A DNA stretch of 46,498 nucleotides, taken from Promethearchaeota archaeon. GTDB lineage: Archaea > Asgardarchaeota > Lokiarchaeia > Sigyniarchaeales > SOKP01. The stretch lies in the NCBI GenBank assembly GCA_030603385.1, contig JAUVXW010000036.1, positions 1-46,498 on the forward strand, read 5' to 3'. Below are positions 1 through 45,633 of this stretch, piece by piece. The first letter of the stretch is position 1. Each line of letters begins with the position of its first letter. The position numbers were made by a program, and so were the translations under genes. The notes beneath the pieces were generated by a model. The model did not search any database. It was given only the letters and a program-made list of their open reading frames with translations, and was not told the origin of the DNA.

Positions 1-273
1 ATAAAAATAAAAATAGTTGAAATCCCTTGGAGATCAAAGGAAGGGAGAGTAAAGGATATGATGATTAGAAAGGCTAAAACAATGGGAGCAAACGCAATTA
101 TAAATTTTATTAATAGGGGACAGGGATTTTGGGCCATAAGAACTACTTATTCAAGGCTCGCGGTTATTGCAGAAGATATCAGAAAATATTGGCAAGGACA
201 AAAATGTAGTTATTGTGGTAAGCGGATAAAGGTTACCGATTATTTCTGTGGATCTTGTGGTTCTAAACAATAA
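1..273 (+). CDS. Partial (5'-truncated) YbjQ/heavy-metal-binding-like protein with C-terminal zinc ribbon
   Basis: Frame is open from base 1. It has a 'KAKTMGANAII' motif (YbjQ-like GANAI) and a C-terminal CSYC...CGSC zinc ribbon. Confidence 0.55.
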   Translation: MKIKIVEIPWRSKEGRVKDMMIRKAKTMGANAIINFINRGQGFWAIRTTYSRLAVIAEDIRKYWQGQKCSYCGKRIKVTDYFCGSCGSKQ

Positions 274-296
274 TTTTTTTTCTTGAATTTTGAAAA

Positions 297-530
297 TTAT
301 CGGTTCCTTTCACATCTGAGTTCACTCAACCCTTTCAATTCAGAAATATTGTTCCCACTTAAATCTAAATACTGAAGGTCTCTAAGCTCTAAGAGCCCCT
401 CAACTTCATCGATGCTATTAATTCCCAGATCTCGAAGTTGTAAATACTTTAATTGAACTCTCTCAGAACCATAACGCTGATAAATTGTAGAAACTTCAAA
501 TTTTTTGCCCTTGTAAATAACACCACTCAT
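297..530 (-). pseudogene. Truncated leucine-rich repeat protein
   Basis: From ATG 530 it reads LQLRDLGINSIDEVEGL / LQYLDLSGNNISELKGL, two LRR units, then stops abruptly (LRCERNR*). Confidence 0.55.
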
Positions 531-652
531 ACATATTATATGGAAAACCACAAATTTAAACTTTTTCACTCTCTAGGTTTATTAATTTGCCCAAACCTTT
601 TTTAATTATAAAATTTTTTCTTTAAATAGATTTGCTTGAATAATTAAAAGAC

Positions 653-1225
653 ATGCCAGTAATCAATAAACTAATATCAAGATTTAAAAAGTTAAAAACT
701 TCAAGAAAAGTCAGCATAGCATTATTCAGCGCCTTCATTATTTTCGCTCAAATTACCTCCATTCTCTGTGCCATTAGTATCCTCAATTTCTCCCAATTAC
801 TTTCCAACATAAAGATCCCCTCTGGATATACATACCTAAATTTAGACATCTATACACCTGAGGATATGGCTGTAGAGGTTCCATATGAAATAAAGAATCC
901 AGGTATCTATGACTTGACTAATATTAAAATTAGCTTAGCTCTTCGACTGAATTATATAAATGCATCTAACCATGCGAATATTACTTCACTAATCTTCTCA
1001 AAAATAAGCTTAATAGGACGTTGTAAGGCTTTCTCTAAATTAATTGACTATTTTAATGGTACGTTTGCTGACTTTATCATTCCACCTCTAATAGATTTCT
1101 TTGATAATGCTGATGAGTTTGAAATGGTAAATTACCTAATAGATATCGAATTTAACGCTGAATACTTTTACGGATTAATAAAGTTTCATTTTGCGGAGTA
1201 TAATCTAAATCTATTTGAAATATAA
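653..1225 (+). CDS. Membrane-anchored hypothetical protein (possible LEA_2/WHy-like beta domain)
   Basis: N-terminal basic region plus one TM helix, then a 'VPYEIKNPGIYDL' beta-rich domain. Confidence 0.6.
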   Translation: MPVINKLISRFKKLKTSRKVSIALFSAFIIFAQITSILCAISILNFSQLLSNIKIPSGYTYLNLDIYTPEDMAVEVPYEIKNPGIYDLTNIKISLALRLNYINASNHANITSLIFSKISLIGRCKAFSKLIDYFNGTFADFIIPPLIDFFDNADEFEMVNYLIDIEFNAEYFYGLIKFHFAEYNLNLFEI

Positions 1226-32735: not shown

Positions 32736-34136
32736 TTACTTATCTGGATTTTCGACAATATTCTTTAAAGGTTTAACCATTTCTGTTTTTATATTAGCAT
32801 AAAACTGTTTTCTAAATTCTTCATTGTTTTCAATTAAGGGTATAAGCATATCATTCATTTTTTTTGCGTTTTTATCATTTTGAGGAAACGTGTCATATAA
32901 ACCATGTTGCTCGTAGTACTTATCATCTGCCCTAAAAATAAATTTAAGTCGGCTAAAAACAGCATCTCTGAAAAGCAATTCAGCGCCTTTACTAAGATAA
33001 GTATGAGTTTGAACATAATTGGAGTTTGAAAATCTAATTGATTGGGTTGCAAAATTTTGTAAGAGTGAGTCGATCTCCTCTGAAGTTCCATATTCATCAG
33101 TAATAAAATCAATAACATTAGATCCCTGGGATTCAGAGTACGCTGAAAAAATTTGTTTAAGATTAGGAATTTGACTTAGGGGTCCAGATATAATGAATCC
33201 AATCTGCTTATCCATCAATGTTGGCACATGATTATTAAAAAAACTCCTATCAAAAACCATTTTCCATCTTGATGATAAATACCTGTCTCTTATATTTCCC
33301 GCAAACACTATAATATCTGATTTTCTTACTTTTTCATCCCAAACTTCCATAAAATCATCTTTCTCCTTGTAGACACATTGATTATCATAACCGCACTGAA
33401 TACAACCTAAACATCCTCCCTTGATATCAATATCATTAATATTAATAACATCCGTTTTCCCAGAAAATGCTATACGAAATCTCTTAATCATCTTGCCTAG
33501 GTTTGTTTCTTCATCCAGGGAATCCGTAAGGATAAGAATTTTTTTACCTTCTGTGTCAATTTTGTTTTCATCACTTACTTTCCCTTTTGGTAAATAATTA
33601 AATTCACGAGGGTTTAAGTTTCGAAAATGCTTTGAAGTTGGAACATTGTTTTCAATAACATAGAAAAAATTTTCCGCGAATGATATTAATCTGTCTCTCT
33701 CTTCAGGTATCATCAAATCACTTGAATCAGCAGAAAAACTGTTAATATATTTCATTTCAAGATCTTCTGATATTGCTCGTAAATAATTATGGGAGGTATG
33801 ATCAAAGTAATGAATTGATGTCGTAAGAGACACAACATATTTATCTTTGAAAGCGCTTTCAACATTTCTTTCTTTGATAAGCTCAATAAACCGCTTATAT
33901 TGAGAAGGAACAAGGCAATAATATACAGGAGTCCCCCAAATTATTCCATCAGATGCTTGAACTTCATTTATAATATCTTGAAATTTTTCTTGGTTTTTTT
34001 CAATCTTCTTAATTTGTTGAGATATATTTATGATTTTAAGTGTGTGCTGAGGGAATTTTTTTTGGATATATAACACATATTGCATTGTAGTACTTTCCTC
34101 ACCCTTAGGACTTCCATTTAAAACTACAATTTGCAT
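32736..34136 (-). CDS. Tandem flavodoxin-fold iron-sulfur flavoprotein / NADPH-dependent FMN reductase
   Basis: 'LNGSPKG' and 'GTPVY' in the first domain. The second domain carries the 'GCLGCIQC....CVY..DD' ISF motif. Confidence 0.85.
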   Translation of the reverse strand: MQIVVLNGSPKGEESTTMQYVLYIQKKFPQHTLKIINISQQIKKIEKNQEKFQDIINEVQASDGIIWGTPVYYCLVPSQYKRFIELIKERNVESAFKDKYVVSLTTSIHYFDHTSHNYLRAISEDLEMKYINSFSADSSDLMIPEERDRLISFAENFFYVIENNVPTSKHFRNLNPREFNYLPKGKVSDENKIDTEGKKILILTDSLDEETNLGKMIKRFRIAFSGKTDVININDIDIKGGCLGCIQCGYDNQCVYKEKDDFMEVWDEKVRKSDIIVFAGNIRDRYLSSRWKMVFDRSFFNNHVPTLMDKQIGFIISGPLSQIPNLKQIFSAYSESQGSNVIDFITDEYGTSEEIDSLLQNFATQSIRFSNSNYVQTHTYLSKGAELLFRDAVFSRLKFIFRADDKYYEQHGLYDTFPQNDKNAKKMNDMLIPLIENNEEFRKQFYANIKTEMVKPLKNIVENPDK

Positions 34137-34325: not shown

Positions 34326-34562
34326 TTATTTTACTGCTTCAAAATAGATATACCACTGCTCATCATCTTCAATGAACTCTGTTCCTAAATGTTTATGCTT
34401 AGTTTTAGCTAAATCACGTGGAACAGATTCGCTTGCTGGTTTGTAGTCTGTTATTACTTTTAACACTGTACCAGGTCTCATTTTCATGAGTTGCTTTTTC
34501 GTCTTTAAAGCTGGTATAGGGCAAACAGAGCCACAAACATTTAATTCCATATTAAATTTCAT
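34326..34562 (-). CDS. tusA: Sulfur carrier protein TusA (distal copy)
   Basis: 'LNVCGSVCPIP..KTKK' and 'LKVITD'. Confidence 0.9.
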   Translation of the reverse strand: MKFNMELNVCGSVCPIPALKTKKQLMKMRPGTVLKVITDYKPASESVPRDLAKTKHKHLGTEFIEDDEQWYIYFEAVK

Positions 34563-34595: not shown

Positions 34596-37067
34596 TTATT
34601 CGCAAATTAAAGTAAAAATTGGTTCTTGCATTCCTGGATCAACCTTCATCTCGACTTGCATTAATTGGGTTAATCGAAGGGCTTCATATCGTACTTTTTT
34701 AGGTTCTAGCTTTAAATTTTGTGCCATATCGCTAATTGTTGTTGGTCCTTGAAGTGTAATATAATCTAAAATCTGTTGCCTTGGAGTTTTTTCAAAAGTT
34801 AAGAGCTCTCGTTTTGATTTAAGATTAATTGCTTTATTTAATTCTTCCTCGTTTACTTCCCCTTCTTCAAATAAACCATTTTTAATAGCAGTCTCTACAA
34901 TCTCCTTCCCTTTATCAGTCCATACTACCACAGTTGTGTACCCTTTTTGAGATCCAACTTCACCCGCCGTTAAATCAGAATAAATAGCAGGAAAATCTTG
35001 ACAGTGAGAACAGAAATGATTACAACTCAAACACCTGCGTGCCTCTTGTATAGCCATTTCTTCATCAAACATTTGATCGATTTCTTCAAAACTCCAAGCA
35101 ATTTCTTCAGTGGCATCTTCTAGTGTTTCTGGTTTTGGTGAATAATCTTTTGGTGGTTTCTTAAGACCTCTAAAAAACATTTTATCTTGTTTAAACCTCC
35201 CTTCAATTAAACTATCACCTTTAAGATATCTGTCAATTGAAATTGCGGCTTCTTTTCCATGTGCAATTGCCGCGATTGCCACTGCTTTCGAGTTATTAAT
35301 TATATCACCTCCAGCAAATACTCCTGGAATGTTCGTTTCAAATGTGACTTCATTTACTCTAATCTTGTTGCGTTCTTTTTCCAATTTATTGTTAGTAGCA
35401 ATATCAATTTGATCAAAATCTACAGCTTGTCCAACCGCAATTACTATAGAATCAATCGGAATTTCATAATCTGAACCTTTAACTTTATTTAATGGTTTTC
35501 TTCCAGTTTCGTCAGGAGATCCCCATTCAATTTTATAACAATTTAACACTAATTTTTCATCATCACTCTGAGTAATTTTAGATGTTGAAGTAGTGAAGTG
35601 ATATTCCATAAATTCAATTTCATTTTCAGGGATTTCTTTTATTACTAATTCAAGCTGTTCTTCAGACATAATATCAACAAAGTGAACTTTACTAGCACCT
35701 AATCTGAGAGCTGTTTGGGCAACATCGACTGCAACCGGACCCCCACCAATTATCCCTAACGTTTTTCCTTTGAATTCTTCTTTATTTTCCCAGTACCGGT
35801 ATTTTCTATCCATAAGAAACTTAATTGCAACATGTACATTAGGAAGATCTTCTCCTTCTAGGTGTAATGTTCGAGGTTTATATTGACCAGTAGCTATGAA
35901 AATTGCTTCAAATCCATCGTTTTTTAAGTCGTCAATAGTCATATCTGGTCCTAATGGTGTGTTAAGAACAATTTCGACCCCAGAGTTTTTTATCATATTT
36001 ACATCATAATCTAATACATAGTTTGGTAATCTAAATTGTGGAACTCCGAATCTTAGCATTCCTCCTGTTTGATCTGATTTTTCAAAAATAGTTGGTGCAT
36101 AACCCATTCTTTTCAAAAAGTATCCTGCTGTCAATCCAGCTGGTCCGGACCCAATAATTGCGACCTTTTTTGCATTCTTTTTAGTTTTACTCTTAGATTT
36201 TGAATCAATCTTTTTCGATTGTTCAATTTCCCATTCGGTAACAAATTTCTTTAATTCCCGAATTGCTACAGGATGATCATCTCCAATTAGTGTACATGCA
36301 TGCTCGCATTCATTTGTACAAATTCTCCCACAAATGGAAGGAAGTGGATTGTTTTCTCGAATTAATTCTACTGCCTCTTGATATTGTCCCTGTCTTATTA
36401 GAGAAATATAACCTTGGGCGTTTACACCTGAGGGACAACCACTACAACAAGGAGAACATACTAAGCCCCGATCAGTTTGCTCGGTTCGCATATGAGAGTT
36501 ACAAAATAAGCCAATTTTTAGTATATCTCGATTCATTTCATCTTCCAATTCAGCGGCACCTCGCATCTCACATGGAACACCTACAATCCCCACTGGTTCG
36601 AAAGTTTCTCCGACTAAATCTACTAATTTTTCTAGAACTCCTGAGCGACCATAGACAACCCCTGCTTTTTGTATAACATCATCAGGATCAGAAACAATAT
36701 TTGCTTGAGGTTTTTCCTCAACATCTTGGACCAATACAATTTCGGCAAGTGATTGGGTCTCTAATAAATTCTTTGCTAATGTGGTGACAACACCACCGTT
36801 TGCCGCTTTTGCTAATATTTCAGGATTTTTGCTTCTTAATGAATAAATAGCTTTTGGTTGCTTTTGCTCAAATTTTTTCTGAATAACCTGCGGGCAACCC
36901 TGGTAGCATTTACCACAATCTTGTCCGTCTCTTTCAAGAATACAATAATCTTTTATTGTTGGGCGTAGAATATCCATTTCTATGTGCTTACACGATCCAA
37001 CACATAGTCCACATCCTTGACACAATCCAGCATTAATAATCTCTTTCCTCAATAATTCAAAACTCAT
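34596..37067 (-). CDS. FrhB/FdhB-family F420-binding subunit with nested GltD/SudA-like NAD(P)H oxidoreductase module and C-terminal wHTH
   Basis: In order: 2x[4Fe-4S]; FrhB motifs 'NGGVVT', 'VGVPC' and 'IGLFC'; then 'CPSGVN...ICGRICTNECE', GSGPAG, GGGPVA and 'EARRCLSC'; then the FrhB tail 'CSHCQDF...DLTAGEVGS..GYTTVVV.TDKG'; then an HTH. Confidence 0.85.
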   Translation of the reverse strand: MSFELLRKEIINAGLCQGCGLCVGSCKHIEMDILRPTIKDYCILERDGQDCGKCYQGCPQVIQKKFEQKQPKAIYSLRSKNPEILAKAANGGVVTTLAKNLLETQSLAEIVLVQDVEEKPQANIVSDPDDVIQKAGVVYGRSGVLEKLVDLVGETFEPVGIVGVPCEMRGAAELEDEMNRDILKIGLFCNSHMRTEQTDRGLVCSPCCSGCPSGVNAQGYISLIRQGQYQEAVELIRENNPLPSICGRICTNECEHACTLIGDDHPVAIRELKKFVTEWEIEQSKKIDSKSKSKTKKNAKKVAIIGSGPAGLTAGYFLKRMGYAPTIFEKSDQTGGMLRFGVPQFRLPNYVLDYDVNMIKNSGVEIVLNTPLGPDMTIDDLKNDGFEAIFIATGQYKPRTLHLEGEDLPNVHVAIKFLMDRKYRYWENKEEFKGKTLGIIGGGPVAVDVAQTALRLGASKVHFVDIMSEEQLELVIKEIPENEIEFMEYHFTTSTSKITQSDDEKLVLNCYKIEWGSPDETGRKPLNKVKGSDYEIPIDSIVIAVGQAVDFDQIDIATNNKLEKERNKIRVNEVTFETNIPGVFAGGDIINNSKAVAIAAIAHGKEAAISIDRYLKGDSLIEGRFKQDKMFFRGLKKPPKDYSPKPETLEDATEEIAWSFEEIDQMFDEEMAIQEARRCLSCNHFCSHCQDFPAIYSDLTAGEVGSQKGYTTVVVWTDKGKEIVETAIKNGLFEEGEVNEEELNKAINLKSKRELLTFEKTPRQQILDYITLQGPTTISDMAQNLKLEPKKVRYEALRLTQLMQVEMKVDPGMQEPIFTLICE

Positions 37068-37069
37068 GT

Positions 37070-38305
37070 TTATCCCTCTCTAATTTTTATTTCTTTAATA
37101 ATTCCTTCAGAATCTATGCTGTATTCTACTGAACCGTTTTTATAGGTTCCTTCAACCACTTCAAAAATTTGGGTTTTATATTCCTCAAAATTATCCTCTT
37201 CATTTATTTTTGATTTGAACCCACCAAAAAATACGTTTGACAAATTCATATTTCCCGCAATCTGACGAATTTCTTCAGTGATTTCCTTATATTGTTTCGC
37301 GTCTTCTTTTTCAATTGCTTCGTGCAATTTTTCTTCTAATTTTAGCAAATCTTCTCGATATTTCCTTGTTTGTTCACTAATCTCGATTTGATTAGCTTTT
37401 TCATATGATTCAATTATTTTAAGAGTGAATGAAATTGATTTATCGCCTCCTAAAAGGCCTGTAATTAATGGTAATTCTTCAATTAATCTTCCAGTAAATA
37501 AATCTTCTAATAAAGTACCTGAAGATGGAATTCTTCCTTTAGGTAAACCAGAGGTAGTTAATGTAAATCTAAAGAAATTTCCAATAATATCTGGTAAACT
37601 TCTTGTTACATCATCATCTTCGTCAGCTAACTTATCTGTTGCTCCTTTAACAGAGTGTTCTGTAGCAACTTCAATGTTTCCCATGAGTGTTCCAAACATG
37701 CCAAGCATACGGATTCCTGGTCTTTCAACTAATTGCTTACAACCTCTACATGGTGTATTATAGTCAATACATCGTTCTTTGCATTCTCGAGAGACAAACC
37801 CATTGCACAGAAACCCTAAGTCATTAAAACAAGTTTCCTCATCTTCAAGTTCAATTTGACGATGTACCTTATCTAAGTATTCACATGTTGCCCTTCGAGT
37901 ACATAAATCACATAGCTTTTTTGGCTTCATTAACTCTTCTCCATTAATCACTGATTTTAATTCATTAACTTCTCCTAAACAACCTTCAATTTCAATTATA
38001 TCGTCAATTAAACCCTTTAGAGGCGTTATTTCATGTCCATGCTGGTTTGCTAAAGCAAAAACTCCACCAGAAACAGTGCAACTACCATAAGCGATAACTT
38101 TATTTGCCTTAGATCTTATCTTACTGAGCAATTCTTTATCAGTTGGGAGTACATAGCCTGTTATTACAGCTGTTTCTATTTTTTCTTCTTTCCACTTTTT
38201 AGGTTCTGAGATGAATTCAACATTATACTCTGAATCTAACTTTAACAATAATGATTCATTAAAACATTTATTACAACCATTAAATTGAAAAATTTTAACA
38301 TCCAT
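37070..38305 (-). CDS. MvhG/FrhG-like [NiFe]-hydrogenase small-subunit homologue with ~200-aa C-terminal extension
   Basis: 'GCNKC', 'AYGSC..GG', 'EGC' and distal 'CDLC..CF..GFLC.G...C...C..PCRGC'. Confidence 0.8.
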   Translation of the reverse strand: MDVKIFQFNGCNKCFNESLLLKLDSEYNVEFISEPKKWKEEKIETAVITGYVLPTDKELLSKIRSKANKVIAYGSCTVSGGVFALANQHGHEITPLKGLIDDIIEIEGCLGEVNELKSVINGEELMKPKKLCDLCTRRATCEYLDKVHRQIELEDEETCFNDLGFLCNGFVSRECKERCIDYNTPCRGCKQLVERPGIRMLGMFGTLMGNIEVATEHSVKGATDKLADEDDDVTRSLPDIIGNFFRFTLTTSGLPKGRIPSSGTLLEDLFTGRLIEELPLITGLLGGDKSISFTLKIIESYEKANQIEISEQTRKYREDLLKLEEKLHEAIEKEDAKQYKEITEEIRQIAGNMNLSNVFFGGFKSKINEEDNFEEYKTQIFEVVEGTYKNGSVEYSIDSEGIIKEIKIREG

Positions 38306-38747
38306 CTTTTATCGTACCCTCTTCTTTAATTGCTGTTGATAACCTATCTACTATATCTTCAAAATCTCCTACTGCCGTTTCACCTTCAGCAGCCCTAGAA
38401 GTGTATTGATTGACAAATTGATCACTATATCCCAATTCTTTAAACAATTTTTTCATCAATTTTATTCTGTGCATTGATAAAACATTTCCATTAAAAAAAT
38501 GACAAGCACCTAAACAGCATCCAACACATGCAACAGCATCAGCACCATTATTTAATGCATCCATAATTTGTATAGGACCAATTTGACCCGTACATTGAAC
38601 TCGTATAATTCTAATTGCGGGATCATAACCCATTCGAGCAACACCTGCAGTATTAGCAGAACCTTGACCACATTCGTTACACATGAAAACTACTAGATTT
38701 TGAATTTTATCTTGAATGTTTTCATCTATAGTTTCATAATCGCTCAT
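38295..38747 (-). CDS. mvhD: MvhD [2Fe-2S] subunit
   Basis: 'FMCNEC', 'IRVQCTG' and 'GCCLGACHF.NGN'. ATG 38747 overlaps the hdrA stop (ATGA). Confidence 0.93.
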   Translation of the reverse strand: MSDYETIDENIQDKIQNLVVFMCNECGQGSANTAGVARMGYDPAIRIIRVQCTGQIGPIQIMDALNNGADAVACVGCCLGACHFFNGNVLSMHRIKLMKKLFKELGYSDQFVNQYTSRAAEGETAVGDFEDIVDRLSTAIKEEGTIKDGC

Positions 38748-40774
38748 TCGCAAACAGCACCTCCGCCAGAAACGGCGACTATTTCATCTAGTAATTGATC
38801 ATCACTAAAATTTATTAATTGAATTGCCCCTGTAGGACAAACGGGCATACACATTCCACAAGATTTACACGCAATCTCATTTACAGTAGGTATTCCATTT
38901 TTATCAATATCAATCGCTGCCGGGGCACAAACAGTTTTACAAAGACCACAATTTACACATAAATCATAATCTATGGAAGGAACTAACATTTCTTTTTCAA
39001 TATATCCTTTCACTAAAGGAGCAGCTGCTAAAGCGGCAGCACTTCCAGCATGAGCAACCGTCTCAGAGATGTCTTTAGGTCCTTGAATTGTGCCGGCTAG
39101 GAAAATACCTCCCTTACTACTTAAAGTAGGATTCATTTTTATATGAAATTCTTTTAAAAAGCCCTCCTGTGATCTCAGAACATGAAGTTTAGAGCCAAGT
39201 GGACCAATTCCTTCAGGGGGGACCATAGCAGCAGAAAGTACAACCATATCAGCTTTTAATTGTAAGGGGGTCTGACTTAATGTGTCTTCAACAATTACTC
39301 TTAACTCTCCCGAAATGGGGTCTCTAACAATTTCAGATGGCCTTCCTCGAATAAATCTAACTCCAATTTCCTGAGCAGATTTGTATAATTCTTCAAAGTT
39401 TAATCCTGGAGTTCTTATATCAATATAACATATTGTTACATCAGTATCAGGATACATTTCTTTAATAATTCTGGCATTTTTGATAGCAAACTTACAACAT
39501 ACTCCAGTACAATATTTATTGCCCACTTGGTCGTTTCTACTTCCTACACATTGGATTATAACAACACTTTCTGGAATTTTTCCATCAGAGGGTCTTAGTA
39601 CTTGACTATTAGTAAGTGAAGTAGGAGATAACATTCTCTCTAGTTTCAATTGAGTAATTACATCTTCATATCCTTCTTGTCCATAATGATAAGGTTCAAT
39701 CTCAGAAGGATTATACTCCTTATATCCCGCAGCAACAATTATTGAGCCAACCTTTACGGTCTTGGTCTCAGATTCCATAGAGAAATCAATTGCTTGAACT
39801 GGGCATATATTTATACAAGTATTGCATTCTATACAAGTCTTTTTATCTCTCACATATGTAGCGGGTATTGCTTGAGGATAGGCTTTGTAAATAGCATTCC
39901 TCATTGACATCCCCATATCCCATTCACTTGGTACTTCCACAGGACAGTGTTCCGCACATTCACCACAAGAAGTACAATTATCTTTAACATACCTTGGTTT
40001 TATTTCAATTTCAACCTCGAAATTACCTAATGAACCTTCAACGCTTTTAACTTGAGCGTTAGTATAAAGCTCTATTAATGGATGGTTAGCAACACCATTC
40101 GTAAGTGGAGAAATTGAACACTGTGGACATTCTAAAGTTGGGAATGTTTTGTTTAAGCGTGTCATATGACCTCCTATAGTAGATTCCTTTTCCACTAGAA
40201 ATACTGGGATTCCCAATTCCGCCATATCATAAGCTGATCGAAGGCCAGCGATTCCAGCACCAATAACTAATGCTGCCTTAGTCGTTGGGATTCTTCTTGT
40301 TTCGACATCTTCTAATTTCCTTGATCGATTTACTCCTGCTTCAACAAGTCTCATAGCTTTTTGAGTTGCTTTCTCTTTGTCTTTTTGATGAACCCAACTA
40401 TCGTACTCTCTCACATTAACCTGCTGATGACGATGTCTGTTCAATCTCATTTCTTCAATTGCTTTTGCAAAAGTTTTCCCATGTTGGTTTTTAGAGCATG
40501 AAGCAACTACAGTCCTATTGACTCCAAGTTCCTCGATAGAATCTTTAATCATTTGAACTCCTGGCTTAGAACACATAAACATATAGTGTTCTGCTTTTAC
40601 TACATTTGGTAATGTTGATGCATATTCCGCAACTTTAGCAACGTCCACAGTTCCGGCAATGTTGTGTCCACAGTGACACACGAATACACCTATTCGTGGT
40701 TCTTCGCTTTCCTCAGTTTCAACCTTTTCCCCTAAACCTTCGGTCTCTTTAACTTTTCCTTCTTTTACAGTCAA
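38744..40774 (-). CDS. hdrA: Heterodisulfide reductase subunit A (flavin-based bifurcating)
   Basis: 'IGVFVCHCGHNIA', GAGIAG, 'KTFPTLECPQC', 'QCVGSR...YCTGVCC', 'GPKDI' and ferredoxin motifs. Confidence 0.97.
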   Translation of the reverse strand: MTVKEGKVKETEGLGEKVETEESEEPRIGVFVCHCGHNIAGTVDVAKVAEYASTLPNVVKAEHYMFMCSKPGVQMIKDSIEELGVNRTVVASCSKNQHGKTFAKAIEEMRLNRHRHQQVNVREYDSWVHQKDKEKATQKAMRLVEAGVNRSRKLEDVETRRIPTTKAALVIGAGIAGLRSAYDMAELGIPVFLVEKESTIGGHMTRLNKTFPTLECPQCSISPLTNGVANHPLIELYTNAQVKSVEGSLGNFEVEIEIKPRYVKDNCTSCGECAEHCPVEVPSEWDMGMSMRNAIYKAYPQAIPATYVRDKKTCIECNTCINICPVQAIDFSMESETKTVKVGSIIVAAGYKEYNPSEIEPYHYGQEGYEDVITQLKLERMLSPTSLTNSQVLRPSDGKIPESVVIIQCVGSRNDQVGNKYCTGVCCKFAIKNARIIKEMYPDTDVTICYIDIRTPGLNFEELYKSAQEIGVRFIRGRPSEIVRDPISGELRVIVEDTLSQTPLQLKADMVVLSAAMVPPEGIGPLGSKLHVLRSQEGFLKEFHIKMNPTLSSKGGIFLAGTIQGPKDISETVAHAGSAAALAAAPLVKGYIEKEMLVPSIDYDLCVNCGLCKTVCAPAAIDIDKNGIPTVNEIACKSCGMCMPVCPTGAIQLINFSDDQLLDEIVAVSGGGAVCE

Positions 40775-40775
40775 G

Positions 40776-41693
40776 TTAAATTACCTCCTCTTCTTTTTCT
40801 AATTCTTCTCCCCCAAAAATATACTCTCTACCCATTAATTGATATTGAAGACCAATAAAATCTTGATCCATACCCATACAATAGGCAGTAAGTTGGGAAA
40901 GATGAATAACTGGATAATCATAATTACAACTTTTATTTTTGTTTAGATAATCTTGACCTGTCTCATATTGTAGATGACAAAATGGACAAATATCAAGTAT
41001 AAAATCTGGTTTCACTTCATCAATATTCTTCATTTTTTCAGCAAATATTGCCATACTTGCGTTTCCATCATATGCTTTAACCCCGCCTCCAGCTCCACAG
41101 CAAGTAAGTTGTTCTTTAAATTTAACTGATTCTATTCCTAATACTTCAATAAATTCCTCTACAATTGTTGGTCCTTCTGAACTTTCAATCTCTCTAATTC
41201 TAGTTGGTTTTAGGAAATGACAGCCATAATGAATTGCTGCTCTAGCATTTACTTTTCGAACGATATGATCTTCAATTCCCCATGGTCCGATTTCATAACC
41301 TAAGACTTCAGCTATATGTCTCACATCAATCGTTCCCTTAAACTCGTAATCGCCAATAAGTTTCAATTTTTCATTTACCATAACTCGATGTTCCTCGTTT
41401 GCTTTCAAATGTTTATTGACTTCTTGAAGTGTGCCAAAACATCCATTACATACAGTCAAAATATCGGCATCTAACTTTTCCGCTATGCACAAATTTCTTG
41501 CTGCTGCTACCATCCAATCAACCTTATTAAAAGATCGAAATACTCCTGGAGCTGGGCAACATGTTGCTCTCTCCATATCTAAGAGTTCGTATCCCAATTT
41601 TTCCATTACAAATTTTGTTGATTTTTCAATAGCAGGATATCGATTTGGCATCAAACACCCTAAAAAGAAAGCAAATGTGTTTTCTTTAACCAT
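40776..41693 (-). CDS. hdrB: Heterodisulfide reductase subunit B
   Basis: Two CCG domains: FLGC..CCPAPG..CNGC and HYGCH..CCGAGG..CPFCHLQ. Confidence 0.97.
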   Translation of the reverse strand: MVKENTFAFFLGCLMPNRYPAIEKSTKFVMEKLGYELLDMERATCCPAPGVFRSFNKVDWMVAAARNLCIAEKLDADILTVCNGCFGTLQEVNKHLKANEEHRVMVNEKLKLIGDYEFKGTIDVRHIAEVLGYEIGPWGIEDHIVRKVNARAAIHYGCHFLKPTRIREIESSEGPTIVEEFIEVLGIESVKFKEQLTCCGAGGGVKAYDGNASMAIFAEKMKNIDEVKPDFILDICPFCHLQYETGQDYLNKNKSCNYDYPVIHLSQLTAYCMGMDQDFIGLQYQLMGREYIFGGEELEKEEEVI

Positions 41694-41696
41694 TTT

Positions 41697-42254
41697 TTAC
41701 GCCTCCTCCTCTTCCTTTTTTTCCTCCTTAACTGGAGGTAAATCAAACATATGTTCCTCAAAATTTTTTAAATCTTTATCATCCCCCTCCTGTTTAAATT
41801 TAAACGCAGTAGGAGGCAATTCTTCTAATCCTAATTCGACTCTTCGTTTTTTTACCTCATCATTTATAGGTACCGCATGTCCAAAATTCTTCAAATAACC
41901 TACTACAGCCCTATGATTAGGAGAGATGTTTCCTAATTTAGTCGCATAATTTCGCAACTCCATAATTACATCTGTAGGTCTTACATCACGAGGACATCGT
42001 TCATAACATTGATAACATGTTGTACAGAGCCAAATGTCTGGATCTTTTAATACCGATAAATCTCCCAAGACAACTTTTCTAATAATAGATCGAGTTTTTA
42101 AAGCAGTCCATCTACCACTCTCACAACTTGCTGTACACGTACCGCATTGGATGCACTGCCAAATATTTGATTTTCTTTCAATATTTTTAAAAAATTCTTT
42201 ATCAAAATCTTCGTCTGTTTTATATTCCCTTGCTTGTTCTTCTACATCAGACGT
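41697..42254 (-). CDS. hdrC: Heterodisulfide reductase subunit C (probable ACG start)
   Basis: The frame extends upstream of 42068 through CIQCGTCTASC to ACG at 42254, which directly follows an in-frame TAA. SD GGTGA at 42265-42261. The second cluster is CTTCYQCYERCP. Confidence 0.92.
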   Translation of the reverse strand, partial: TSDVEEQAREYKTDEDFDKEFFKNIERKSNIWQCIQCGTCTASCESGRWTALKTRSIIRKVVLGDLSVLKDPDIWLCTTCYQCYERCPRDVRPTDVIMELRNYATKLGNISPNHRAVVGYLKNFGHAVPINDEVKKRRVELGLEELPPTAFKFKQEGDDKDLKNFEEHMFDLPPVKEEKKEEEEA

Positions 42255-42308: not shown

Positions 42309-42740
42309 TTATAATGAAACTATTCTGCCACCGTTACTCATTTCTAAAAATGCAGCAGCACCAACAGGATCTTCAACCCAATCAAGTAAATCTTCTCTTT
42401 TTATCCTCATTAAATCCATGGTCATTTGACATGGATATAATTTCATATTTCCGTTTTCGACAGCATCCTTAATCATTGCCCATGGATCTTCAATACCGAA
42501 TTTTTTCATTCTTTTTAAAAATATTTTTGCACCCATCCCTTTCATTGGAAAAGGCATACCTGCAACTTTTGGTTTAAACTTCTTAGTTAGAAGATTTAAA
42601 CCCCAAAAAGTAAAGAAAAAATTCATTTTAGTATCCATAGCGTCACCTGTTGTTCCAAGGAGCATCATCATTGCGAACTTTTCGAATGATTTGTCCTTTA
42701 CAATAAAATTTATTGTTTCTGTTTCAGCCACATATACCAC
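42309..42740 (-). CDS. DsrE2/DrsE_2-family sulfurtransferase
   Basis: 'FFTFWGL', 'YPCQMTMDLM' and 'VGAAAFL'. The true start may be GTG 42731. Confidence 0.88.
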   Translation of the reverse strand: MVYVAETETINFIVKDKSFEKFAMMMLLGTTGDAMDTKMNFFFTFWGLNLLTKKFKPKVAGMPFPMKGMGAKIFLKRMKKFGIEDPWAMIKDAVENGNMKLYPCQMTMDLMRIKREDLLDWVEDPVGAAAFLEMSNGGRIVSL

Positions 42741-42846
42741 CTTCTATTTTTTTTTGTTATTCTTTTTTTTGTTTAATACTAACTTTTTCCTGGTATTAAC
42801 CAGATTTTTTCAAAAATCTTTTTATATTAATTTTTTTTCCTTCAAA

Positions 42847-43188
42847 CTACATCCAAGAAATAACCTTTGGAGTAGCATCTATAAAATCTATAAGATCATC
42901 GTATTCTATAGATTTAATTTTATTATGAACTAATTCTGGAGCTATTCCACGAGCCTTTATATCTGACTTCATCGCAAATACAGCAATATCTAAATCGAGG
43001 AGTTCTTCCATTTGTTTTGGTATTTTTCCCTTTGTTGAGATACCTATTACACCATCTTGAATTAAAACTAATCCAAGCTTAGTGTTCTTTTTGATTTGAC
43101 TTTTTAAAAGGGGTAGTAATCTTCTTAAATGATTCCCTGTCAATCCACTAAATCCAAACAAATATATCATATCAAGATTTTCTGTCAT
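42847..43188 (-). CDS. dsrH: DsrH/TusB-like subunit
   Basis: 'LIQDGV', 'DIKARG' and terminal 'VISW'. Confidence 0.88.
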   Translation of the reverse strand: MTENLDMIYLFGFSGLTGNHLRRLLPLLKSQIKKNTKLGLVLIQDGVIGISTKGKIPKQMEELLDLDIAVFAMKSDIKARGIAPELVHNKIKSIEYDDLIDFIDATPKVISWM

Positions 43189-43204
43189 TATTTTCTACCC
43201 TCCA

Positions 43205-43573
43205 TTAAAATCTAAAGCTTGTATCGGCATTGGCAATTAACTCTGTTAAATCGTCATAATTGATGATTTTCAAGTTTTCATACTCAACTAAGTCTTCTTT
43301 TGTTATTCCCGCCTCATTTAAAGCAGATTCAATTAGATATACTTCTAAATCAGATAAATCTGCCATTTCTAATACCTCTGTCAAAGGATCCATTCCAACT
43401 GCTTCCGGATTGCAATACTTATTAAACAAATAAACAGCATCACCCGTTAATACAACTTTACAGTCAATAATTTCTCCTAGAGCTGTGAATCCTGAGCCAA
43501 TCCTTATTGCCTCAATTGCTGAATTTCTCCCTATAGGTGATTGGTCACTTATTACTACTACTGATTCTATCAT
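43205..43573 (-). CDS. dsrF: DsrF/TusC-like subunit
   Basis: 'SPIG...EAIR', 'GDAVY' and terminal 'ADTSFRF'. It lies between dsrE and dsrH. Confidence 0.85.
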   Translation of the reverse strand: MIESVVVISDQSPIGRNSAIEAIRIGSGFTALGEIIDCKVVLTGDAVYLFNKYCNPEAVGMDPLTEVLEMADLSDLEVYLIESALNEAGITKEDLVEYENLKIINYDDLTELIANADTSFRF

Positions 43574-43576
43574 GAT

Positions 43577-43945
43577 TTAACCTCCAGTTCCAAATACTAA
43601 TAATTTATCCGCTTCTATTGCCCAATTTGAAAAATCTCCTAATCCCTCTTCAGTCGCACCTTCAATGAATTCTGACTCTTTTAACCCAGTTATGCTAACC
43701 CATGTACTACAGCCAGCAACTGGAATGCTATTATCCTTGCTAAATTGTTCGATTTTCTCTGGGATGTTGCGAATAGACGTTCCACAGCTTATATCCTTTT
43801 TAAGATTATATACTCCTGTACCAAAGAAAAATATGCCCCTAATTTCATGCCCCTTTCTAATCGCAGCTTTACCTATTTCGATCAGCGAATCAACTGCTTG
43901 ATATTTGTAAGGTTCTGTGCTAATAAAGAAAACATATTTGGACAT
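43577..43945 (-). CDS. dsrE: DsrE/TusD-like sulfurtransferase subunit
   Basis: 'PY', 'GHEIRGIFFFGTGV', catalytic-position Cys in 'AGCSTW' and 'GLG....AIEADKLLVF'. Confidence 0.88.
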   Translation of the reverse strand: MSKYVFFISTEPYKYQAVDSLIEIGKAAIRKGHEIRGIFFFGTGVYNLKKDISCGTSIRNIPEKIEQFSKDNSIPVAGCSTWVSITGLKESEFIEGATEEGLGDFSNWAIEADKLLVFGTGG

Positions 43946-45078: not shown

Positions 45079-45633
45079 TTATGATTCTAAAGATAATGGT
45101 TTATATTTTGAATATAATTTATCAATGATAGCATTGAAAGCATTACGAACTCCTTGTCCCGTTTTTGCTGATGTTAAGTAATATCCGAGAAAATTTCGTT
45201 TTTTAACAAGTTCTTCAATTTTCGTTTTATCAAAACTGTTTTCCTTAATTAAATCTACCTTATTGGCAAATAAAACAATAGGAATATCGCTACAATACTT
45301 TTTTAACTCATTATCCCAATTATCTATATGTTCAAAACTTTCTTTACCTAAATCATTATCTTCAAGGCTATAAACAATTATGCAACCTTTACTTTCTCTA
45401 TAAAATAATGGATGTAAAAAATTAAAATCATCTTGACCTGCAATATCCCAGAAATTTAAACTTATTAAGTCTCCCTTAATTTCTTTATCATATTTTGAAA
45501 ATTGGGCACCTATGGTTTTGATATAATCTTTTTCAAAAGTTCCCTTTGTGAATTTTTTTACTAAAGATGTTTTTCCGACCCCTCCATCTCCTATTATGCA
45601 TATCTTAAATCCAAATTCTTGAGAATTAGTCAT
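45079..45633 (-). CDS. Rab/Ras-like small GTPase
   Basis: G1 GDGGVGKTS, G2 TIG, G3 WDIAGQ, G4 NKVD and G5 TSAKTG. No prenylation motif. Confidence 0.95.
   Translation of the reverse strand: MTNSQEFGFKICIIGDGGVGKTSLVKKFTKGTFEKDYIKTIGAQFSKYDKEIKGDLISLNFWDIAGQDDFNFLHPLFYRESKGCIIVYSLEDNDLGKESFEHIDNWDNELKKYCSDIPIVLFANKVDLIKENSFDKTKIEELVKKRNFLGYYLTSAKTGQGVRNAFNAIIDKLYSKYKPLSLES

Follow-up and report, generated by a model that had tools for sequence, protein, structure and literature searches.

The window analysed here is a stretch of 46,498 nucleotides from a Promethearchaeota archaeon (contig JAUVXW010000036.1, assembly GCA_030603385.1). On its reverse strand, at 34596..37067, lies a single open reading frame of 823 residues, which Pfam, a sequence search of the PDB and AlphaFold modelling identify as a protein of FrhB fold that encloses an NfnB-like module and ends in a winged helix. 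Its gene is a constant component of an hdr operon that is free of hydrogenase, which makes it probable that the protein is an NADH port for an Hdr complex. We consider with moderate confidence that it forms the donor arm, linked to nicotinamide adenine dinucleotide (NAD(H)), of a hydrogenase-free HdrABC-MvhD complex, with NADH as hydride source, because Fdh-Hdr and Elp-Hdr are characterised analogues, and because GltD/NfnB modules nested in HdrA have been proposed to bring in NAD(P)H.

The preliminary description of this gene had reported FrhB motifs that run to IGLFC, at about residue 190, and resume after an inserted unit, so that the protein would be a true insertion and not an end-to-end fusion. 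The Pfam profiles bear this out. FrhB_FdhB_N (PF04422) matched residues 75-146 with 48.2 bits (cut-off 22), and FrhB_FdhB_C (PF04432) matched with 69.5 bits (cut-off 23.3) in two stretches; in the whole-genome Pfam scan these corresponded to profile positions 3-49 (residues 158-200) and 78-149 (residues 665-740), leaving positions 50-77 unmatched. Between them were found Fer4_20 (residues 190-283, 91.7 bits) and Pyr_redox_2 (residues 300-604, 91.4 bits). The PDB sequence search gave the same order: residues 5-190 matched FrhB, the half of Fsr that oxidizes F420H2, and the subunits of the Ethanoperedens carbon monoxide dehydrogenase (CODH) and Fwd that reduce F420, residues 200-685 aligned with NfnA of NfnABC, StnC and NfnB, and residues 685-749 aligned with FrhB residues 192-253. 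All motifs quoted in the preliminary description were in place (IGLFC at 185-189, GGGPVAVD at 441-448 and HFVDIM at 462-467), and GSGPAG stands at 306-311.

The chain begins with a ferredoxin-like domain (residues 1-70, 36858..37067), in which eight cysteines (16, 19, 22, 26, 42, 51, 54 and 58) are 99-100% conserved in 121 orthologues and are predicted to hold 2 x [4Fe-4S]. The first part of FrhB (residues 71-192, 36492..36857), with the motifs NGGVVT, AGVVY, GVPC166 and GLFC189, precedes the insert (residues 193-685, 35013..36491). The insert itself comprises an Fe-S domain (residues 204-285, 36213..36458), with the pattern C204-x2-C207-C208-x2-C211-P, C246-x3-C250-x3-C254-x3-C258 and K273, then domains for flavin adenine dinucleotide (FAD) and NAD(H) (residues 299-620, 35208..36173, IIGSGPAG at 304-311), recognized by Pyr_redox_2 and by alignment to NfnA, StnC and NfnB, and finally a tail (residues 650-685, 35013..35120). 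The second part of FrhB (residues 686-757, 34797..35012), which reads C686-x2-C689-QDF...SDLTAGEVGS...YTTVVVWT, was delimited by alignments, the FrhB_C profile and superpositions. The winged helix (residues 758-823, 34599..34796) completes the protein. The whole would contain five [4Fe-4S] clusters and two FAD.

Whether the two halves of FrhB come together was addressed with an AlphaFold2 model built from a 98-sequence alignment. The model had a predicted local distance difference test score (pLDDT) of 84.7 and a predicted template modelling score of 0.74, and was weak just at the two junctions, 192-194 and 637-657. It was compared with 48,161 chains using a sequence-order-independent aligner. 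The best FrhB-type match, 8riu_E (Z 28.6, root mean square deviation (rmsd) 3.4, 281 residues), covered model residues 1..758 and thus spanned the insertion, as did FrhB itself (9r51_B, Z 25.2, 223 of 282 residues, model 65..759) and Fsr (7np8_A, Z 24.4, 255 residues); 8rja_K and ElpB of the Elp-Hdr complex (8rvu_E) gave Z scores of 27.8 and 22.9. Because these superpositions on FrhB-type modules cross the insertion, the split halves do reassemble in the predicted model, with Z scores of about 25-29 to FrhB-type chains. The insert matched NfnA (9n5v_A) with a Z score of 40.1 over 453 residues (model 188..686, VIA alignment). The architecture is not an assembly artefact, since more than 120 clusters of 817-825 residues, 73-92% identical, come from independent assemblies.

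The insert had been taken for a complete GltD/SudA/NfnB-like unit of about 480 residues (36470-35020, which corresponds to residues 200-683). It is complete in content, but its order differs: alignment indicates a circular permutation compared with canonical GltD/NfnB, in the form found in Bfu-type NfnABC and Stn. The tail, which reads FEEIDQMFDEEMAIQEARRC679LSC682 and would close the distal cluster of the insert, aligned over residues 650-683 (...FDEEMAIQEARRCLSC) with the N-terminal helix and first CxxC of NfnL (4ylf_B 10-42; 5jca_L 7-45), and also with the C-terminal tail of StnC/NfnA (residues ~540-594). The best matches to the insert in sequence and in structure were 9n5u/9n5v, 9bov and 8oh5, the sequence match to 9n5u_A having an E value of 3.9e-90.

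In Thermotoga maritima NfnB, the distal cluster is bound by C39, C42, C47 and C100, and the proximal cluster by C51, C90, C96 and E117 (PMC7596348). Mapped on this protein, the distal ligands of the insert are C679, C682, C207 and C258, and the proximal ligands are C211, C250, C254 and K273. K273, which aligns with E117 and is nearly invariant (alignment A1), probably supplies the fourth ligand to the FAD-adjacent cluster; a Lys ligand at the proximal cluster was reported as a hallmark of NfnA/StnC in NfnABC/Stn (PMC12018979). The FrhB cluster is bound by C104, C134, C192 and C195 (PMC3591093), to which C166, C189, C686 and C689 correspond in the alignment. Among the 121 orthologues the 14 cysteines attributed to the three clusters at the junction are 96-100% conserved, and C166, C189, C679, C682, C686 and C689 are present in every one (121/121). 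The distal ligands thus map to C679/C682 and to C207/C258, and only three residues separate C682 from C686; on this mapping both ends of the cassette are placed at its own distal cluster, and the cassette appears spliced between the second and the third ligand of the FrhB cluster.

The second dinucleotide fold of the insert (residues 441-467, 35667..35747) bears on the nucleotide used. The five closest solved relatives all read GGGNTAMD...V(Y)RR, whereas the 823-residue protein reads GGGPVAVD...FVDIM, so that the YRR motif for the 2'-phosphate of NADP(H) is not present and VDI(M) stands in its place. As had been noted, an Asp stands in the place of YRR; this residue, Asp465, occupies the position of the first Arg, where 119 of the 121 orthologues have Asp and the other 2 have Glu. 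Among 39 unrelated NfnB-like representatives, 29 had YRR, nine the (C/S)LE type and one another motif. In NfnB, YRR binds the 2'-phosphate, and in DsrL the measured use follows the motif, NADP(H) where YRR is present and NAD(H) where it is absent (PMC7596348). Since an acidic VDI replaces YRR, and since the presence of YRR tracks nucleotide use in DsrL, NAD(H) is the likely ligand of this fold.

The same features bear on a second explanation, in which the protein would by itself carry out an Nfn-like bifurcation: the insert FAD would be the bifurcating flavin, the FrhB flavin would take over the role of NfnS, and low-potential electrons would leave through the ferredoxin domain. The insert is 33% identical to T. 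maritima NfnL over 411 aligned residues, with the same cofactor set, and the whole chain would carry two flavins. However, the topology is permuted as in StnC/NfnA and Lys273 replaces the Glu, both at variance with an NfnSL-type bifurcating large subunit, and NADH is thermodynamically a poor donor for bifurcation of the Nfn type. Furthermore, the gene is strictly linked to hdrA, which has its own bifurcating flavin, and no [2Fe-2S] NfnS-like element was found beside the flavin, no search aimed at an NfnS partner having been made. The FAD of the corresponding module in NfnABC was reported to be a plain entry from NADPH to the clusters and not a bifurcating flavin (PMC12018979). We therefore regard self-contained bifurcation as very improbable, and keep to the insert as an entry for NADH.

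The preliminary description had also proposed two flavin entry ports, one for F420H2 and one for NADH, and as stated this is not supported. The FrhB_C profile positions that are missing, 50-77, correspond to FrhB residues of about 143-170. In the Frh structure this stretch is a three-stranded sheet (148-172), of which the only conserved part, 163-IGKGK, forms a turn beside the ring of F420, whose phosphate it was proposed to bind (PMC3591093). In the alignment, KMDIxKGKF-like motifs are retained by six canonical FrhB paralogues from the same genome, and the 823-residue protein has none. The insert therefore replaces the beta-sheet that flanks F420, with its IGKGK turn, instead of merely splitting FrhB. 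Other positions are altered as well: S209 of FrhB, beside the F420 ring, is Glu703, Lys75 of the FAD-proximal Lys75-Tyr76 loop is Val/Ile, the DGG of the family is (S/N)GG, and PCQ is PCE. The loss of the flanking sheet and these changes make the F420 port doubtful, and we put the chance of a remaining reaction with F420 at the FrhB flavin site slightly below even.

A two-port enzyme, in which the FrhB flavin would oxidize F420H2 and the insert flavin would handle NADH, so that the protein would be a dual-donor input for HdrA and/or an F420H2:NAD+ transhydrogenase wired by Fe-S clusters, is thus a possible but doubtful alternative. In its favour, conservation extends to the core motifs of FrhB and to the four ligands of its cluster, the two halves of the fold join up in the model, and the genome encodes F420 synthesis (CofH above cut-off, and CofE). 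Mer (TIGR03555) gave no match above cut-off in the genome. Characterised FrhB-family modules on Fe-S enzymes react with F420 (PMC10229431, PMC11493965, PMC12350162). Against this stand the changes described above. Furthermore, an entry that carries the annotation of a chlorophyll reductase (HCAR, 5dqr, Z 20.8) shares the FrhB fold. HCAR is not known to use F420.

That the FrhB flavin still has a function is best argued from short forms of the protein. These have 366-399 residues (P0132, P0288-P0316) and are 66-75% identical to the N-terminal part of the 823-residue protein; one of them, in another genome (G065; L023:6890-8029, reverse strand), sits in exactly the same operon slot. They are without the FAD and NAD domains and, like the long forms, without the IGKGK sheet, which speaks against F420 use as it does in the long forms. 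They retain two remnants of the insert, RCGCTL[LI]GE..P..I..LK and EGKRCxSC, that is four insert-derived cysteines (C-G-C and CxxC) and a helix, and may therefore retain its distal cluster. We considered whether these forms of about 380 residues are the ancestor that had not yet received the insert, and rejected this because of the NfnB-derived remnants and because they form one clade (Shimodaira-Hasegawa-like approximate likelihood ratio test 99) nested among the long forms in a tree rooted on the Thor-type relative P0332. The root lies on a long branch, and the polarity rests mainly on the insert remnants; we read the short forms as probable deletion derivatives of the long forms. Since they occupy the same operon slot without the FAD and NAD domains, the NAD module is dispensable in some lineages, and their being kept in the operon is most easily explained by a working FrhB flavin port. 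A divergent FrhB_C protein of 379 residues encoded by the genome under study (G000:C25) was checked as a candidate short form, and is not one.

The operon to which the gene belongs lies entirely on the reverse strand, and runs in the order dsrE, dsrE/F, dsrH, DsrE2-type gene, hdrC, hdrB, hdrA, mvhD, mvhG-like gene, 823-residue gene and tusA, the 823-residue gene being the last enzyme gene. The sulfur-carrier genes at its head span 42309..43945 (Pfam, synteny). They are followed by hdrC (41697 to about 42254), hdrB (40776-41693), hdrA (38744-40774), mvhD (38295-38753) and the mvhG-like gene (37070-38305, 411 residues), all assigned by Pfam, NCBIfam and synteny; tusA (34326..34562, 78 residues, Pfam TusA E 1.2e-18) is directly downstream of the 823-residue gene. 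In other genomes, all eight long-form loci with full flanks had the same order, with orthologues 54-86% identical, and two truncated loci matched it as far as they extend. The tusA gene followed in these eight loci (8/8), in locus L022 and in the short-form locus L023, and in one distant locus (44% identity) a tusA homologue was directly upstream. The mvhG-like gene adjoined the 823-residue gene in all loci. The role as an input for HdrA that had been suggested earlier fits this strict synteny with hdrCBA-mvhD. No [NiFe] large subunit gene was found in the operon; such genes occur elsewhere in the genome.

The mvhG-like protein gave Oxidored_q6 and VhuG-like matches, has an extra C-terminal part of about 200 residues, and is encoded with no gene for a large subunit in the vicinity. 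Its probable role is that of an Fe-S adaptor, similar to ElpA, which is catalytically empty. A contig of 364 nucleotides from an RNA library maps on its gene, and may be DNA carry-over. In hdrC, the first ferredoxin motif, CIQCGTCTASC (42069-42254, reverse strand), is upstream of the first ATG, GTG or TTG of the frame, which opens with ACG directly after TAA, so that a non-canonical start or another mechanism is needed.

In the mechanism that we favour, the 823-residue protein would occupy the place taken by MvhAG, FdhAB or ElpAB in the Hdr complexes of methanogens, as an input arm or, in reverse, as an output. Its scaffold would be an FrhB-type module that combines the ferredoxin domain (2 x [4Fe-4S]) with a single [4Fe-4S] cluster and a site for FAD, onto which the NfnB-like cassette, with FAD, an NAD(H) site and 2 x [4Fe-4S], would be grafted cluster to cluster. 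First, NADH would reduce the FAD of the insert. Second, electrons would pass through the proximal cluster (C211, C250, C254, K273) and the distal cluster (C207, C258, C679, C682) to the FrhB cluster (C166, C189, C686, C689). Finally, ferredoxin would be reduced at HdrA, while HdrB would act on a disulfide or persulfide borne by the co-encoded TusA/DsrE-type proteins. Hdr-linked reduction of TusA/DsrE persulfides was proposed in an Asgard preprint, with hydrogenase as the donor (10.1101/2025.07.22.663070).

What the analysis shows is the order of the domains, the joining of the split fold in a model, the conserved ligands, a motif that is not of the NADP type and the tie to the operon; the cofactors, the use of NADH, the direction in which electrons flow, the assembly into a complex and the sulfur substrate are inferred. 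Several considerations weigh against this proposal. The cluster-to-cluster graft is argued from adjacency in the sequence and from homology. The specificity for NADH follows from a motif rule, and the site could bind another nucleotide, or none. The short forms are without the NAD port, which means that another electron entry must exist there; it could be the FrhB flavin, and this would favour the enzyme with two ports.

The C-terminal winged helix that had been described was confirmed by modelling the last 66 residues alone (pLDDT 80.8, secondary structure H-b-H-H-b-b). The top 50 structural matches were all winged-helix domains, the best being a Z-alpha domain (4kmf_A, Z 10.3, rmsd 1.8 A, 61 residues), and Pfam gave for the tail alone just winged-helix families below cut-off (HVO_A0114, TFIIE_alpha). 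The C-terminal 66 residues are thus predicted to be a winged helix; the fold alone does not show DNA binding. The tail carries an invariant recognition helix, KKxRYEALRL, and a Cys within its last four residues (...LICE; last four codons, 34599-34610). This Cys was found in 116 of the 121 long orthologues and in 18 of the 20 short ones, and was absent from the two most divergent long forms. It resembles the penultimate Cys of DsrC, and the operon is flanked by DsrE/F/H-like and TusA genes; no DsrC/TusE (PF04358) was found in the genome, which is 94% complete.

A redox-sensing regulator, in which the winged helix would bind DNA and the Fe-S/flavin body would signal the redox state to transcription, would account for the confident fold and the invariant basic recognition helix. 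However, winged helices are also common as protein-docking domains, and the matches to the tail included such proteins (SelB, ESCRT-II and RNA polymerase III subunits). An enzyme of 823 residues with five clusters and two flavins that is a fixed subunit of an hdr operon makes an unlikely sensor, and the operon has a dedicated Lrp/AsnC regulator gene, divergently encoded at its head. We consider a regulatory function very improbable.

Elements of these proposals can be combined. The FrhB cluster could be a three-way Fe-S junction between the NADH flavin, a remodelled FrhB flavin whose substrate is still F420H2 or has become a new one, and HdrA's bifurcating flavin, so that one complex would couple NADH, F420H2, ferredoxin and a protein-bound persulfide; in addition, the winged helix with its terminal Cys would be a sulfur-carrier arm similar to DsrC/TusE, loaded by TusA/DsrEFH and reduced at HdrB. 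We consider this combined proposal rather unlikely, and retain the simpler donor arm for NADH.

Full-length copies were found in at least 32 of 301 sampled genomes of the phylum, all but one in two families of one order. A copy with 91% identity lies on a short contig in a genome assigned to a different family of the phylum (f24; locus L004, G295:C137:2056-4533), which reflects either a recent transfer or a mis-binned contig. In a 50% clustering of 1.84 billion proteins there were just two further full-length representatives, 57% and 46% identical. Close matches in named records were all of Promethearchaeota type, and all 33 close genome-contig matches have titles of metagenome-assembled genomes; DNA of this stretch came from marine-sediment, cold-seep, subsurface and vent metagenomes of 13 studies. 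The ESM Atlas contained a second Promethearchaeota cluster, of 911-residue proteins (67 members) with FrhB_N, FrhB_C and Pyr_redox_2, and a longer variant of the nested architecture may thus exist.

The closest relative of the insert (57% identity over residues 205-696) is in the same genome, in a protein of 928 residues (L024:1843-4626, reverse strand, G000:C25) that consists of an HdrC-like dicluster, an NfnB-like module with LVDIL in place of YRR, and two HdrB-type CCG domains. From its domains, this protein could be a one-protein NADH:disulfide reductase. Since the closest relative of the insert sits in such an Hdr-like protein of the same genome, the cassette has moved among the Hdr-related proteins of these archaea.

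In the same genome (L001:8951-10639, reverse strand, G000:C25), a second hdrA-like gene is divided into frames of 112 and 448 residues by one in-frame TGA (...FPTDDCSI-TGA-ILGPK), and adjoins an aldehyde:ferredoxin oxidoreductase gene. A selenocysteine-containing HdrA was reported for Lokiarchaeia (PMC11227280), and the interrupted frame would fit such a protein. In the window, downstream of tusA, 32736-34136 (reverse strand) encodes a 466-residue protein whose two halves are FMN_red/flavodoxin-like and which has a CxxCxxC-like motif; a homologue of it follows the operon in just one other examined locus (L014). Two genes past the operon head, 45079-45633 (reverse strand) encodes a Ras-family small GTPase (Pfam Ras, E 4e-43), which fits the Asgard origin of the DNA.

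No NCBIfam model scored above cut-off for the 823-residue protein, for which the NCBI name is 'FAD-dependent oxidoreductase'. A literature search, which left most subscription journals outside its reach, found no paper that describes an NfnB/GltD module nested in FrhB. The parts of the protein and its design principle are all known already; it is the nested combination that is undescribed in the literature found. If the reading as a donor arm is true, these archaea have a conserved, hydrogenase-free route that feeds NADH into an electron-bifurcating complex of Hdr type tied to sulfur carriers. The protein would also be a natural example of modular engineering of an Fe-S flavoenzyme, in that a permuted cassette, both termini of which converge on a single cluster, sits spliced in amid the ligands of a second one, and the long and short forms that share this operon slot are a ready-made pair for biochemical comparison. 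In other Hdr systems the feeding of NADH into Hdr is so far only a proposal, as for bacterial Flx-Hdr. Type III HdrA is a further system for which such feeding, with NAD(P)H, was proposed (PMC12054007).

Compared with known systems, the insert is closest to StnC of Sporomusa ovata StnABC (8OH5) and to NfnA of Bfu-type NfnABC (9BOV, 9N5U/9N5V), with an E value of 4e-90 and a Z score of 40.1. They share the circular permutation, the first CxxC in the tail and a Lys at the ligand position of the proximal cluster, and in these enzymes too a larger Fe-S protein encloses the module, which serves as the entry for pyridine nucleotide (PMC12018979, PMC10482914). In contrast with the insert, the modules of StnC and NfnA have the YRR motif and take NADPH; they are hosted by a Bfu/FdhA-like subunit instead of FrhB, with a BfuBC core as partner in place of Hdr. 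DsrL is also an NfnB-like iron-sulfur flavoprotein, and works with proteins of sulfur metabolism (PMC7596348); it is free-standing, has terminal ferredoxin domains and DsrAB as partner, and has neither an FrhB host nor an Hdr context.

The FrhB part has the same fold (Z 24-29) and the same four cluster ligands as FrhB, the N-terminal half of Fsr and the F420-reducing CODH and Fwd subunits (4OMF, 9R51, 7NP8, 8RIU, 8RJA), and Fsr and 8RIU/8RJA also have the N-terminal 2 x [4Fe-4S] ferredoxin domain. Unlike this group, the 823-residue protein is without the sheet 148-172 and its IGKGK turn, and several conserved positions of the flavin/F420 site are changed.

Two systems resemble it in their Hdr context. 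In type III HdrA (HdrA9-11) of ANME-1 and Bathyarchaeia, a GltD/NfnB-like module of about 500 residues is nested in an Fe-S domain of an Hdr-system protein, as here, and NAD(P)H was proposed to enter the complex through it (PMC9012536, PMC12054007). However, the host is the inserted ferredoxin domain of HdrA itself and not a donor subunit of FrhB type, and the lineage is different; the two insertions appear to be independent events. ElpB and FdhB, in Elp-Hdr of Methanothermobacter marburgensis (8RVU) and in Fdh-Hdr, are FrhB-family subunits encoded, like the 823-residue protein, with hdrABC and an MvhD-type connector, and feed Hdr through MvhD-type subunits (PMC12350162). In Elp-Hdr a catalytically empty relative of the catalytic partner, ElpA, acts as a scaffold; the MvhG-like protein would be its counterpart here. 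In ElpB and FdhB the F420 site is intact and there is no NAD module, whereas in the 823-residue protein the sheet flanking F420 is replaced by the NAD(H) flavoprotein, a winged helix is added, and sulfur-carrier genes are part of the operon.

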